In this document: one piece after another, positions 28,201-33,214 of the stretch
How the letters are laid out: the number at the start of each line of letters is the position of its first letter
How positions within the stretch are numbered: the first letter of the stretch is position 1
Virus record (IMG/VR): IMGVR_UViG_2537561930_000012
Origin: a virus
Lineage: Duplodnaviria; Heunggongvirae; Uroviricota; Caudoviricetes
DNA: 33,214 nt
Direction: 5' to 3' (one strand)
Notes under the pieces: generated by a model
What the model was told of the DNA's origin: nothing
The model's database searches: none
What the model saw: the letters and a program-made list of their open reading frames with translations, nothing else
Position numbers and translations under genes: made by a program

Positions 28201-28677
28201 CACACCCACAGCGCCAGCGCATCCAGTACGGATTTGGGGACGAAAACCACATCGTCGTTTGATTACGGCACTAAATCCACGAATAACACCGGGGCTCATA
28301 CGCATAGTCTGAGCGGCTCTACAAGCTCGGCTGGAGCACACTCGCACGTTGATGGGCGCAGGTTTAATACAAGCACTTTTAAAGACACCTATCAGTATGG
28401 TTCTACAGCTGTCGGAAGTAACTCATACCAGGTACAAGGGGCGGTTGGTCTGGGCGTTGGTACGATGGCGAATACGAACTCTGCTGGCGCGCACACCCAC
28501 TCACTGTCCGGCACTGCTGCAAGCGCAGGCGCACACGCACATACTGTCGGTATTGGTGCACACACGCACTCCGTTGCGATTGGTTCACATGGACACACCA
28601 TCACCGTTAACGCTGCTGGTAACGCGGAAAACACCGTCAAAAACATTGCATTTAACTATATTGTGAGGCTTGCATAA
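25279..28677 (+). CDS. stf: Side tail fibre protein Stf (mosaic; expanded Ala/Ser/Thr-rich repeat region and His-rich C-terminal fibre repeats)
   Basis: About 1132 aa from ATG 25279; lambda Stf-like N-terminus ([26 protein letters not shown]...); repeated SETNA motifs; C-terminal GAHTHS-type repeats; ends ...[11 protein letters not shown]. Confidence 0.85.
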
Positions 28678-29258
28678 TGGCATTCAGAATGAGTGAACAA
28701 GCACGGACCATAAAAATTTATAATCTGCTGGCCGGAACTAATGAATTTATTGGTGAAGGTGATGCATATATTCCGCCTCATACAGGTCTGCCAGCAAACA
28801 GTACCGACATTGCACCGCCAGATATTCCAGCTGGCTTCGTGGCTGTTTTCAACAGTGATGAGTTATCGTGGCATCTCGTTGAAGATCATCGGGGTAAAAC
28901 GGTTTATGACGTGGCTTCCGGCGACGCGTTATTTATTTCTGAACTCGGCTCATTACCGGAAAATGTCACCTGGTTATCCCCGGAAGGGGAGTTTCAGAAG
29001 TGGAACGGCACAGCCTGGGTGAAAGATGCAGAAGCAGAAAAACTATTCCGGATCCGGGAGGCGGAAGAAACAAAAAACAGCCTGATGCAGGCAGCGAATG
29101 AGCATATTGCGCCACTTCAGGATGCTGTAGATCTGGAAATCGCAATGGAGGAAGAAAACTCGTTGCTGGAAGCCTGGAAAAAGTATCGGGTGTTGCTGAA
29201 CCGTGTTAATACAACAACTGCACCGGATATTGAATGGCCAGTAGCACCTATAGGGTAA
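28677..29258 (+). CDS. tfa: Tail fibre assembly protein Tfa
   Basis: 193-aa ORF overlapping stf stop (TAATG); conserved C-terminus ...[31 protein letters not shown]. Confidence 0.85.
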
Positions 29259-29845
29259 ATTCGTAATGATTACCTAAATACGTTATTCTTTTGTTCAAAA
29301 AGTGATTTTGCTATAGGTAGAGAGTATGTTCTTGGATTAAGAATAAAAAATCGCCATGAAAGAGCTTCATGGCGAGTACATAAACGTACAAAATATGATG
29401 AAAGTAGAGCGGCGTAAGCCACTATATTAAGATATGACAATAGCGAAGAAAAGTGAATAACATTTTATGGGCGTTTAATTGTTAATTATAAAAACTAGAG
29501 TGCCCGATATTGTTTATCTTGCTTTAAAATAATGTACTCAAACCAAATTTTTGAGCTAAAAGCTCAAATAATATAAATGCAATGATAATGTTTAATAAGA
29601 CAATTAGCTTGCTTTGTATTTTCATTTCGGAATACTGTTAAGTAACTTTGATGACCCTAACAATAGATCGGAATTTTCTTAGAGTCAATGGTCACTGTAT
29701 TTGCTTGCAAAGCAAATGTTTTGGTGGTTATAAGTTTTCCTAATATAGTCACCTATGCAACTTGTTCCGTGTGGAGATTAAAGGTTAAAATTTAATGCGA
29801 AGATGGAATTATATTATATTTTTTATAATTAATTTAACCTTAACA

Positions 29846-29944
29846 TCGTTGCTGGCGGCATGGAAGAAATATCGGGTCTTGCTGATGTCGTGTTGGCACT
29901 TCCTTAGTGCCGGATATCAAATGGCCAGCTGTACCTGTGGGGTG
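29846..29944 (+). repeat. Decayed second copy of the tfa 3' end (frameshifted remnant)
   Basis: About 75% nucleotide identity to 29160-29258; encodes ...[12 protein letters not shown] then, after a frame change, PDIKWPAVPVG*. Confidence 0.55.
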
Positions 29945-30604
29945 AAAACTTTATATGGATGCTATTTTTATAATAGCTGGTAAAAACTGGCCGAACTGAA
30001 ATTCACTGTTGATAAAAAAGATGTGTTTGAGTGTATGTCATTGTTTTCTTAATGGAATCCACTAGAATGCAGCGAATTTAAGAAGGTGGGTTTTTATTGG
30101 AATATAAACTACAATAATGCTCAACTCGTTCGTAGAATTGTTTTTTCTTATTTCTTGGAATGCTAACCATTATATGCATTATGGGGGCGATGCTTCCTGA
30201 TAATTTACATGATGCATACATTGAAGCAATAAATTCAATATCATTGTCATCAAAGTTAAAGCTTTCTCCGTCCATTTCAATTCCTTATGTGTTTGGCACA
30301 ACTGATGCTGTATCCCATGAGAATTTATGCAAGTTGTTATGTTTGATTTGATATTGCAATGATAATTGTAGCTAATTGTTTTCAATTGAGTGAAAGTTTA
30401 TTTCGAGTGATTAAGTCGAAAAAAAAGATTTCTCACGGTTAGTAAGCATATTAGGTCAGTATTCAGATATGAATGGTATTAATGACTAAATTTTCAATCA
30501 TATATGGATTTTTATGCTGATGAAGATGTTTTATTTGGCGATTCGTCAAGCATCTTCACTTAAGTAATCGTATATTTTAAGAGTGCAAAAGAGAAAGGGA
30601 CAAC

Positions 30605-30703
30605 GTTGCTCGCACTCTGGATTAAATATAGGGTATTGTTAAACTTCGTTGATACATAATTGTACCGGATATTGAGTGGTCTGAAGTCCCAGTCATTAAG
30701 TAA
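30605..30703 (+). repeat. Decayed third copy of the tfa 3' end (more diverged remnant)
   Basis: Alignable to 29170-29258 (...ctggattaaatatagggtattgttaaac...taccggatattgagtgg...taa); encodes LWIKYRVLLNFVDT* and, in another frame, PDIEWSEVPVIK*. Confidence 0.45.
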
Positions 30704-31051
30704 TTGTTTCGTGATATGCTGCAGAAACGTTGTATGCAATAACGTTCTGCGGTTGGCTGGTGAAATTTCGATAGTGCGGGTATTGAATGATTTCCAGCCG
30801 TTACCGATTTTATATAACTGCAGTGGAATTATTCAACACACAGGCAAAACTGAATAAGCTGAGAAAAAAGCGTGCTTTCCCAATCTGGGGCAAATCACTT
30901 CTGAATGACACCTGAAAACAGGTGGTGGACTCAAGAAGGCTTGGAATATTCTTCTTTAATGTTATGTAATTCATTGATTTTTCGTGTACGATTTTAAGAC
31001 ATTTATTCCAAGAAAAATTTTTAACTCTTTGATTTTTCGACTCTGTATCAT

Positions 31052-31113
31052 CGGTCTCGAAAACCGGAGTAGGGGCAACTCTACCGGGGGTTCAAATCCC
31101 CCTCTCTCCGCCA
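31052..31113 (+). other. 3' fragment of tRNA-Ser (serU-type, anticodon arm through CCA end), likely prophage attachment-site (attR) scar
   Basis: 62 nt CGGTCTCGAAAACCGGAGTAGGGGCAACTCTACCGGGGGTTCAAATCCCCCTCTCTCCGCCA; upstream sequence does not continue into the tRNA 5' half. Confidence 0.6.
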
Positions 31114-31697
31114 CTTTATCAATGACTTATCTCCCGACTTCCCGCCTTGCTTTTCCTAAACAGAACAATCGTAGAATATTCTTGAAGGGTTAGATCGTCA
31201 CTGTTTTCTGTTCGATACTGTGACATTCAGCACTTGATTCGCTATGGATCTGACAGGAAGGTTTTGAGCGAAAATTTGCAGTTATTCAGTCGTTTTCTTA
31301 TCGGTCACCATTATTCTTTTAGACATTGATCCTACAAAGCTGCCGCAAAGTTGGTGGTGGGAACTGAAGTTGCGTAGAGAAGGGGTCAATACCCGGAGGC
31401 AAACATGGGCTGGCAAAAGTGTAGCGGTATTAGGCGCAGCTATTTAGCCTAGTTATGTTTTATGAAAACTTGATATCATATAAGTGTCTTACTTATTGGC
31501 TGTAAATAAGTTTTTCCTAAGGAATTGTTTCTTGAGTATCATTTGTAACTGTAACGGAATTTATAATCCTTTGCTTTATTGTTACGGTATTTTTTATCAC
31601 ACCCTATTTTTTATGTGGTTTTTTATACTGAAGTTTGGCAAAGTGAACTTTATATGCATATACTTCATCCTGGTTTCAGTTAAGTTGGGTGGATGAT

Positions 31698-32441
31698 ATG
31701 GCAACTACATGTTCAGTTATATTGATTTTGGAGTCCTTTGATGTTTATTTCGGAAAAGAGAGTGTGTTTCTAGAGAAAGGTTCATCTGTACTTGTCGACT
31801 CTAGCTCTAGAGATTTTTTCCTGACATATCCTGAAAGAGTGATAGTGGCGGATTTTGGCGCTGAGTTTATTAGTCGCTATTTGAAAGCTAATAACTTAAG
31901 GGATATTTCTGATTGTAGGGAATATCCATCTTATTTAAAAATAAACTTTGCTGACTTCAGTTTAATTAAAGGATTAATTAGTTGGGCTAATCACTGTGCT
32001 GAATACATAGAAATTTTTGATGAGTCTATTGCTTTTACATGTCTCTCTGCATTTTCTTCTGAAAAACAATTTGGAGTATTTCTGTTTGAATGTTTGAAAA
32101 GCACAGAGGCTAAAGTTAAAACGATTATTCATACGGATTTATCTGCACCATGGCGTCTTAAGGATATATCATCAAGATTATATCTCAGCGAAAGTTTACT
32201 AAAGAGGAAATTGAAAGAAGAGGGGGTATCATTCAGTAAGATCATACTTGATGAGAGGATGCAAATGGCTGAATATTTACTCAGCACTCGTTGTTATCCT
32301 ATTAGTAAAGTAGCTAAGGTCTGTGGTTATGCCAGTGTCTCATACTTTACTTATGTATTTAGACGTTATTTTGGTGTTTCTCCAAGTCAATACTCTCAGA
32401 GGAGTTCAGAAAGTAAAATTCTTACTCACCAGGGAATCTGA
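31698..32441 (+). CDS. AraC/XylS-family transcriptional regulator (AppY/YdeO/GadX-like)
   Basis: About 247 aa (ATG 31698; track ORF from GTG 31689); C-terminal dual-HTH AraC signature (WRLKDISSRLYLSESLLKRKLKEEGVSFSKIILDERMQMA...CGYASVSYFTYVFRRYFGVSPSQY); AT-rich gene. Confidence 0.75.
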   Translation: MATTCSVILILESFDVYFGKESVFLEKGSSVLVDSSSRDFFLTYPERVIVADFGAEFISRYLKANNLRDISDCREYPSYLKINFADFSLIKGLISWANHCAEYIEIFDESIAFTCLSAFSSEKQFGVFLFECLKSTEAKVKTIIHTDLSAPWRLKDISSRLYLSESLLKRKLKEEGVSFSKIILDERMQMAEYLLSTRCYPISKVAKVCGYASVSYFTYVFRRYFGVSPSQYSQRSSESKILTHQGI

Positions 32442-32482
32442 TCATTGTTCTTGCCCCCTTATTTCCAGACAGGGGGTGTATC

Positions 32483-32848
32483 TTAAGTTAACGTTACCCG
32501 CTGACGTCGATATTCTCGCGGAGAGCGATAACCCAACGCACTGTGCGGATGGTTTTCATTGTAATGATCGATCGCCACTGCAAGATTATGCAATGCCGTT
32601 CTTACATTCGGTTTCGGCATGAACGCGATGTAGTCTTCCTTCATCGTTTTCACGAACCTTTCTGCCATTCCATTACTCTGAGGACTGCTGATTGCCGTTG
32701 TGCAGGGCTCCAGATTCAACTCTCTGGCGAACTGCCATGTTTCATGCGCTCTATACGCTGAACCGTTATCTGTCAGCCACTGGATGGACTGTTCCGGTAC
32801 TTTATCGCCAAAGCGTTTTTCTATCGCTCCTAACATGACATCCTGCAC
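32483..32848 (-). mobile_element. Truncated IS3-family (IS2-like) transposase OrfB, C-terminal half of the DDE/rve catalytic domain
   Basis: 121-aa minus-strand ORF with DNGSAYRA...[11 protein letters not shown]...[14 protein letters not shown]; the N-terminal half and orfA of this copy are missing. Confidence 0.7.
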
Positions 32849-32992
32849 TGTCGCTTTATCGTAACCTCCCGTGCTTGCGGCCCAGTCTATGGCTTCACGA
32901 TCGCAACAGTCCAGGGCGAACGTAACACGCAGTTTTGAATCGCCACGGGTTTAACAGACACCTCAGAGTCATTTAAGATGGCTTAAAGAGAG

Positions 32993-33214
32993 GTGCCCAT
33001 GAGCGGTAAGCGTTATCCCGAAGAGTTTAAAACTGAAGCAGTCAAACAGGTTGTTGATCGCGGTTATTCTGTTGCCAGCGTTGCAACACGTCTCGATATC
33101 ACCACCCACAGCCTTTATGCCTGGATAAAGAAGTACGGTCCGGATTACTCCACTTTTTCATCAAGCCAATCCGCCCACCACTGCATCATTTCTCTGCGCT
33201 TATCGAGATACTGA
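32993..33214 (+). CDS. IS3-family transposase OrfA (HTH), opposite orientation to the adjacent OrfB fragment; C-terminal region looks aberrant
   Basis: 73-aa ORF MPMSGKRYPEEFKTEAVKQVVDRGYSVASVATRLDITTHSLYAWIKKYGPD... then non-conserved tail before stop at 33212-33214. Confidence 0.65.
   Translation: MPMSGKRYPEEFKTEAVKQVVDRGYSVASVATRLDITTHSLYAWIKKYGPDYSTFSSSQSAHHCIISLRLSRY

Follow-up and report, generated by a model that had tools for sequence, protein, structure and literature searches.

The window, i.e. the complete stretch of 33,214 nucleotides that was analysed, carries in order a nin region (DUF968, RusA), the Q antiterminator, four tRNA genes, the lysis genes, the terminase, and the head and tail genes up to tfa. 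The tail fibre assembly gene tfa (28677-29258, plus strand; Pfam Caudo_TAP, E 2e-42), identically annotated in a near-identical locus (L001), is the final structural gene of this lambdoid prophage, and the cargo begins beyond it. It is followed by an AT-rich segment (29259-30812, 33% GC) that is 97% identical to the right-hand terminus of a Qin-like prophage ending at ydfJ (L015). This Qin-type segment contains two remnants of the 3' end of tfa (29846-29946 and 30604-30679), recovered by blastn with the tfa 3' end and overlapped by weak Rfam IS009 matches, and a 65-aa hypothetical ORF on the minus strand (30078-30275). Then comes a 305-bp P arm typical of serU-integrating lambdoid prophages (30747-31051, plus strand), 96.7% identical to that of HS13-1 (L014) and also matching SerU-LTIIb, which forms the left half of a fossil attR. 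The core of this attR is a 62-nt 3' fragment of the serU tRNA-Ser(CGA) gene (31052-31113, plus strand), extending from the anticodon stem to the CCA and 100% identical to nucleotides 29-90 of K-12 serU; ARAGORN makes no call on it because it is truncated. The fragment is succeeded by 278 bp of host serU-yodB intergenic DNA (31114-31391, plus strand; 97% identity to K-12, L016 2691-2968), an AT-rich leader of 34% GC (31392-31697, plus strand) and the gene for a 247-aa regulator (31698-32441, plus strand), which we call patE on grounds given below. A partial ISEc48 of the IS3 family (32444-32913, minus strand), placed by alignment transfer of a Sakai repeat_region and with Pfam rve_3/rve matches on its ORF 32483-32848, begins 3 nt after the patE stop, and the window closes with the N-terminal fragment of a different IS3-family orfA transposase (32993-33214, plus strand; Pfam HTH_Tnp_1, E 1e-14), annotated as a partial transposase in L001. 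The ISEc48 remnant is common to both contexts that were aligned in full (the window at lambda att and O157 Sp1 at thrW), whereas some other copies have it shortened or cut by an IS; the orfA fragment from 32993 is specific to the lambda-att context.

Two further ORFs in this region were judged spurious: one of 70 aa (31484-31696) lies within the AT-rich patE leader and the other, on the minus strand (31282-31416), straddles the joint of host and foreign DNA. A promoter and terminator scan of the region gave nothing that exceeds shuffled expectation, and the promoter-like TTGGCA-18-TATACT at 31635-31664 in the leader is a motif not above chance when taken alone. There is no clear intrinsic terminator after patE, because the IS DNA starts 3 nt beyond its stop. 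Rfam searches of 28500-33214 returned no known regulatory RNA, the only matches being IS009, which corresponds to the 3' end of tfa, and a tRNA-like background signal over the serU fragment. The leader from 31454 onwards is conserved together with the coding sequence in an 84%-identical homologue that occupies the slot between Q and holin of another prophage (L019): window positions 31454-32435, comprising leader (31454-31697) and CDS, are 82% conserved. Since this conservation is seen in a different slot, leader and patE CDS evidently travel as one unit.

The regulator gene is an intact ORF of 247 codons from an ATG and encodes an AraC/XylS regulator of the YdeO/GadW/AppY branch. An alternative GTG start at 31689 would give 250 aa; the ATG is favoured by a Shine-Dalgarno-like GGGTGG motif 5 nt upstream and by the RefSeq start in near-identical loci. 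The 247-aa protein matches Pfam HTH_18 (residues 161-238, E 9e-16) and HTH_AraC (E 1e-16), both above their gathering scores, and thus possesses, at its C terminus, the domain of some 100 aa with a pair of helix-turn-helix motifs that defines the AraC/XylS family. An ORF of this length at 35% GC with so strong a domain match is far beyond chance. The top NCBIfam models are YdeO (NF007407, 149 bits vs a cut-off of 348) and GadX (NF007432, 112 bits vs 500), the latter match being confined to the C-terminal part of the protein. Both scores fall below the equivalog cut-offs and identity to K-12 YdeO is only 35%, so that assignment as YdeO or GadX proper was rejected in favour of a related member of the subfamily. 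Among K-12 proteins, BLASTP gives full-length alignments with YdeO (35% identity), GadW (33%) and AppY (29%) and alignments limited to the C-terminal part with GadX (35%) and EnvY (39%). The original prediction, made from the sequence without searches, had placed the gene in the AppY/YdeO/GadX branch, had called its GC content very low and had located it about 600 bp past a tRNA-Ser fragment and ahead of IS debris; each of these points agrees with what was found. The best models are those of YdeO and GadX, the CDS has 34.7% GC (27% GC3) vs 53.3% in the phage backbone of the window, the gap between serU fragment and ATG measures 584 bp, and the gene is followed by the partial ISEc48 and then by the second IS3-family fragment.

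An AlphaFold model built from 14 family members (mean pLDDT 83, pTM 0.75) is predicted to consist of an N-terminal β-rich domain (strands at residues 3-54 and 79-83) with helices and of an all-helical C-terminal DNA-binding domain. In Foldseek searches of the PDB its top full-length matches are CsvR, Rns and ToxT (E 6e-11 to 1e-7, TM about 0.5), and in the model the N-terminal half has the β-sandwich of the Rns/ToxT-type fold. For the C-terminal half, superposition on 3mkl, the DNA-binding domain of GadX, gives a TM of 0.88 and 44% identity, and the helical HTH modules also superpose on the DNA-binding domains of AraC and MarA. Thus, Rns, CsvR and ToxT share with PatE the same two-domain layout as the best full-length structural matches of the predicted model; their identity to PatE is about 20%, and their own regulation is defined by fatty-acid binding.

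The window protein agrees at 244 of 247 positions (98.8%) with ECs_0287 of E. coli O157:H7 Sakai; the three residues that differ between the window and Sakai alleles are K27R, E131G and E137G. Both proteins fall in one 90%-identity cluster of 1788 sequences, some listed members of which are truncated or partial. ECs_0287 is the sole AraC-type gene of the Sakai prophage Sp1 at thrW, which we take to be the counterpart of CP-933H/O-island 8 (OI-8) of EDL933. The equation of ECs_0287 with Z0321 is drawn because it is the only AraC gene in Sp1/OI-8 and is one of location, not of direct sequence comparison. In the explanation that we favour as a whole, and in which our confidence is high, the gene is an allele of the already known patE, first described in EHEC EDL933 (Z0321, O-island 8).

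The gene patE (z0321), located in OI-8, encodes an AraC/XylS regulator that activates gadB, gadC, gadE and hdeAB through a PatE-responsive element mapped in the hdeA promoter (-132 to -45), has higher expression in stationary phase, and exerts a negative effect on six LEE genes; the O157 orthologue has both deletion and expression phenotypes (PMC10877973). The suggestion that the regulator could control host genes is therefore correct for the O157 orthologue. PatE, PsrB and AppY have been classed together as AraC regulators of prophage origin that are tied into the AR2 system of acid resistance (PMC10057817), and a preprint reports increased acid survival of E. coli Nissle upon overexpression of a gene that its authors named PatE. 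By transfer from the 98.8%-identical O157 protein, the window allele is predicted to have the same regulatory function. [quoted passage not shown] The N-terminal Rns/ToxT-type domain probably mediates dimerisation and possibly senses an effector. PatE would thereby tie prophage carriage to acid resistance and, in EHEC, to the control of type III secretion.

The cassette in which patE sits is shared with Sakai Sp1 over 1.87 kb: window positions 31051-32919 correspond to L004 12457-14323 with 99.2% DNA identity, and the left edge of the shared cassette is the first base of the serU fragment. On the other side of this core, homology to K-12, HS13-1, MB15 and SerU-LTIIb ends sharply at 31391/31392. 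Several genomes display the corresponding junctions in their native setting. In HS13-1 the same P arm and serU fragment lead into the intact spacer, then yodB-side DNA and zinT; the attR of SerU-LTIIb consists of an annotated 62-nt pseudo tRNA-Ser followed by yodB; and the Sp1-type arm is found in situ at serU in 13 genomes, such as MB15, where pinE, a GIY-YIG gene, the serU fragment and yodB succeed each other. Thus, the serU junction is a genuine attR, but of other, serU-integrating phages, preserved as a fossil inside prophages that themselves use lambda att or thrW. Every inspected copy of patE retains the serU scar unless it has been cut by an IS.

The live boundary of the prophage lies elsewhere. 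Near-identical chromosomal loci show the order J, lom, tail fibre, tfa, AT-rich DNA, AraC gene, IS remnants, ybhB and bioA, and the ybhB-bioA neighbourhood is the classical lambda attachment locus. Alignment with the attP of phage ev099 and with the K-12 ybhC-ybhB spacer reveals, beyond the window end, the lambda P arm, the core ACTTTTTTATACTAA, the right arm of the K-12 attB and then ybhB, which places the lambda attR about 225 bp past position 33214. As attR lies beyond patE, the gene is inside the prophage, not outside it. The view that the regulator lies outside the prophage must accordingly be abandoned. What holds is that an AT-rich, YdeO/AppY-like regulator acquired horizontally sits at the edge of a prophage, and that the tRNA-Ser att junction a short way before it is genuine. 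For annotation, this means that the tRNA-Ser fragment is not usable as a prophage boundary here. The sole match to the lambda att core within the window (31617-31631, two mismatches, in the patE leader) was dropped, given that the true attR lies beyond the window.

The same cassette is packaged by free phages: the isolated phages ev099, mEp332 and PhiR70_1 carry it from window position 30857 to at least 32500, where the query ended, with 99.1-99.6% identity, and in these phages it lies between the tail-fibre genes and attP/int. The ev099 order of tfa, cargo, attP and int corresponds to the position of the lambda b-region. Thus, patE is a moron, or cargo gene, in the b-region equivalent of a lambda-like prophage at the lambda att site. 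It has the location expected of a moron, between the late structural genes and the attachment site, both in the integrated state (tfa, cargo, attR in L001) and in the free phage (tfa, cargo, attP, int in ev099), as well as the deviant composition (34.7% vs 53.3% GC) and the presence/absence pattern: related prophage ends lack patE or have other cargo in the same place, such as a restriction-modification system. With viable lambda-like phages carrying patE, the rewiring of acid resistance would be transferable by lysogeny.

PatE is spread well beyond O157. The gene is present in 658 of 5426 complete E. coli genomes (about 12%), usually in one copy and almost always on the chromosome, with an intact ORF in about 645 genomes. 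The lambda-att junction accounts for about 176 genomes and the Sp1-type junction for about 429, mostly at thrW; the remaining copies are cut by IS1, IS3 or IS5. All the contexts inspected are the right end of a prophage. In K-12 the lambda att site is empty and the serU-yodB spacer uninterrupted, and patE is missing from both. When one genome per bacterial species was scanned for relatives of PatE, the only matches were two spurious ones of 23% in Paenibacillus; with no close relative in this set, neither a donor species nor an in-situ chromosomal copy was found. Likewise, further patE-positive genomes inspected for a copy in the serU-yodB interval contained none, their patE genes all lying in prophage ends near thrW/pao or at lambda att.

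Whereas the identity, anatomy, distribution and phage carriage of the cassette were observed directly, its history is inferred; most likely it is a specialised-transduction-like relic that was later spread by phage mosaicism. We propose that the patE leader and CDS, with the adjacent IS3-family element, were once positioned 278 bp beyond serU, or joined that flank; a serU prophage would then have taken the flank along by aberrant excision, as in the formation of lambda-bio. Subsequent recombination among lambdoid phages would have transferred the unit to phages whose integrases use other sites (lambda att, thrW), for which the repeated tfa 3' remnants (29846-29946 and 30604-30679) are candidate recombination points. 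The precedent is provided by the lambda bio/gal transducing phages and by SerU-LTIIb: as in these, an attR-type junction of phage arm and serU core is followed by the normal DNA flanking serU. Aberrant excision is known to produce such structures, and for the patE cassette the event itself is one that we infer. Unlike in the lambda bio/gal phages, the product has become established in viable phages from nature whose present integration sites are different ones. The strict form of the proposal, to which we give even chances, is that the 340 bp of serU fragment and spacer are a natural fossil of specialised transduction, captured together with patE across attR and now fixed in viable lambda-like phages and in O157 Sp1. 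The patE flank would then preserve a clear molecular record of one way in which phage cargo can arise from chromosomal DNA beside an attachment site.

That one and the same core is preceded on its left by either of two P arms may reflect either two captures from one flank or an integrase-mediated exchange at the core. In a bolder extension, the retained serU core may still recombine, with serU-specific integrases swapping cargo between phages; a core that is a working recombination site would explain why two unrelated arms join at exactly the same nucleotide. In an alternative reading, patE had been carried by phages from before, the captured host DNA being limited to the serU fragment and the 278-bp spacer, and position 31391/31392 would be an illegitimate excision joint rather than a former chromosomal insertion point. 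In excision of the lambda-bio type, the point where host DNA meets phage DNA is indeed arbitrary; no copy of patE in place on the chromosome was seen among the genomes examined; and all close relatives of patE (84% and about 52% identity) are carried by phages, in the Q-holin slot. Against this, an identical joint lies to the right of two unrelated arms, in the window and in Sp1, a situation simplest if both phages met a pre-formed chromosomal flank; yet Int-mediated exchange at the serU core explains the shared joint equally well. On balance we regard capture of the spacer without patE as possible, albeit somewhat doubtful.

A different kind of doubt concerns whether the gene does anything at all. 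As a silent relic, it would be AT-rich DNA silenced by H-NS and hitch-hiking with the prophage, for which its very low GC, typical of H-NS-silenced DNA, the failure to find a strong promoter and the replacement of its native 3' flank by an IS fragment 3 nt past the stop could be adduced. Such a relic is hard to reconcile with an ORF that is intact in about 645 genomes and belongs to a 90%-identity cluster of 1788 sequences (even with some members truncated or partial), with the retention of patE in viable phages with tight genomes, and with the deletion and expression phenotypes of the O157 orthologue (PMC10877973), and we deem it very unlikely.

The original prediction had further raised the prospect that the regulator, lying outside the prophage, belongs to a second, degraded element integrated site-specifically in the same tRNA-Ser gene. 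In its favour are a real serU att junction 584 bp upstream, the AT-rich DNA and the IS debris that follows the gene, but it is now largely refuted and we consider it very unlikely. The prophage is integrated at lambda att beside ybhB rather than at serU, with its attR beyond the gene, and free phages package the cassette. No second serU repeat was found, the window, L001 and L004 each having a single serU-derived segment, and there is no integrase ORF or remnant between the serU fragment and patE (31114-31697). Moreover, the two are separated by 278 bp of unaltered host spacer, which an element integrated in the tRNA gene would not leave. Together, the single repeat, the missing integrase and the intervening host spacer argue against a second tRNA-integrated island, whose expected hallmarks, namely tRNA 3' repeats on both flanks and island DNA abutting the repeat, are both lacking. 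Finally, that patE is a conserved core-genome regulator in syntenic position, the finding named at the outset as fatal to the original prediction, is a reading refuted to the point of negligible probability: no supporting point was found, and the gene occurs in only 12% of complete E. coli genomes, is missing from the lambda att site and serU-yodB spacer of K-12 and from all species-representative genomes scanned, and occupies two or more chromosomal sites, always within prophage ends.

Capture across attR thus remains the account that we prefer. The gene itself is known and its place among the cargo ordinary, the capture scar being of modest interest. Several comparisons place this gene among related systems. 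The closest is PatE of O157 itself (Z0321/ECs_0287), with 98.8% protein identity and the same cassette of serU fragment, spacer, leader, gene and ISEc48 remnant, likewise at a prophage right end. The two differ in that the phage here is lambda-like and sits at lambda att/ybhB, whereas in O157 thrW is occupied by the Sp1 remnant; outside the cassette, leftwards from the serU core and rightwards from 32919, the flanking DNA is not the same, and the proteins differ at three amino acids. With the chromosomal YdeO, GadW and GadX, PatE shares the subfamily, full-length alignment, a conserved N-terminal M..CSVI motif and 33-35% identity; in contrast to them, it is accessory and phage-borne, and it scores far below the YdeO and GadX equivalog cut-offs. 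AppY, in the K-12 prophage DLP12, offers a parallel in position, being a YdeO/GadW-like AraC regulator located behind tfa remnants where a lambdoid prophage has its right end, and it too activates gadE and the AR2 system (PMC10057817). It is, however, only 29% identical, and DLP12 lies at argU with neither the tRNA-Ser nor the host-spacer scar.

PsrA and PsrB (Z1789, Z2104) of O157 are similarly phage-borne AraC-like activators of gadE/hdeA that indirectly lower type III secretion, and the sites of PsrB and PatE share an interval of the hdeA promoter (PMC10877973), but they are different genes from patE. The 243-aa proteins of about 52% identity to PatE that occupy the Q-holin slot of lambdoid prophages may represent this Psr group.

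The AraC/XylS regulator gene patE (31698-32441, + strand) belongs to the cargo that follows the tail fibre assembly gene tfa (28677-29258, + strand), and the same layout, a tfa remnant and then an AraC regulator, is seen at the right end of the K-12 prophage DLP12, where appY is preceded by tfaD, ybcY and a tfaX remnant (L033 3535-6431). In the window, an Rfam match to IS009 (RF02111; 209 bits) falls within the tfa coding region at 29020-29218, while weaker, degraded copies downstream (29830-29905 and 30470-30661) overlap remnants of the tfa 3' end. The IS009 'RNA family' looks here like the conserved 3' end of tfa, and the repeats of this end look like the scar left by successive cargo insertions.

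The AT-rich Qin-type segment (29259-30812) codes for a 65-aa ORF (30078-30275, - strand), which has no Pfam match and corresponds to the hypothetical protein WP_001438255.1 in the near-identical lambda-att locus (L001). The right end of the segment stops at 30812, within a stretch of ~81-95 bp (30721-30815) with ~90% identity to a site present in almost all E. coli chromosomes, which in L013 (18503-18583) lies between ykgJ and ecpE. The same stretch also matches HK97, HK106, mEp460 and many Stx phages, directly past their tail genes.

Sp1, the thrW-integrated O157 Sakai prophage, has a patE orthologue; in prophages of its type that lack patE, the GIY-YIG gene is instead followed by a cytosine methyltransferase and a type II restriction enzyme (L031, L030). 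The cargo boundary in these consists of a 19-nt copy of the anticodon arm of serU, GGACCGGTCTCGAAAACCG (L031 7340-7380; same region of L030), which suggests that the serU core, the tRNA-Ser(CGA) 3' fragment found in the window at 31052-31113, is the place of cargo swapping in this phage lineage. The patE leader additionally contains a lambda att-core-like sequence, GGTTTTTTATACTGA, with two mismatches (31617-31631), probably a chance occurrence in AT-rich DNA.

Lambdoid prophages (e.g. L019 10001-10735, L006 8001-8732 and L010 1602-2315) and isolated lambda-like phages (Lambda_ev203, 1H12 and others) encode relatives of PatE in their Q-holin slot. These relatives show either 84% identity to PatE or belong to a group at 46-54%, whose members share 75-93% identity among themselves and may represent PsrA/PsrB. 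The loci of this group show a DUF1722 gene immediately upstream, joined in L006-L009 by a lipocalin-like gene.

In Stx phages, stx occupies the slot between the Q antiterminator and lysis genes. The window has four tRNA genes there (Met-CAT, Lys-TTT, Thr-TGT and Gly-TCC; 2396-2705), flanked by Q (1431-2252) and the lysis genes, comparable to the tRNA pairs in this slot of the SerU-LTIIb prophage (L036).
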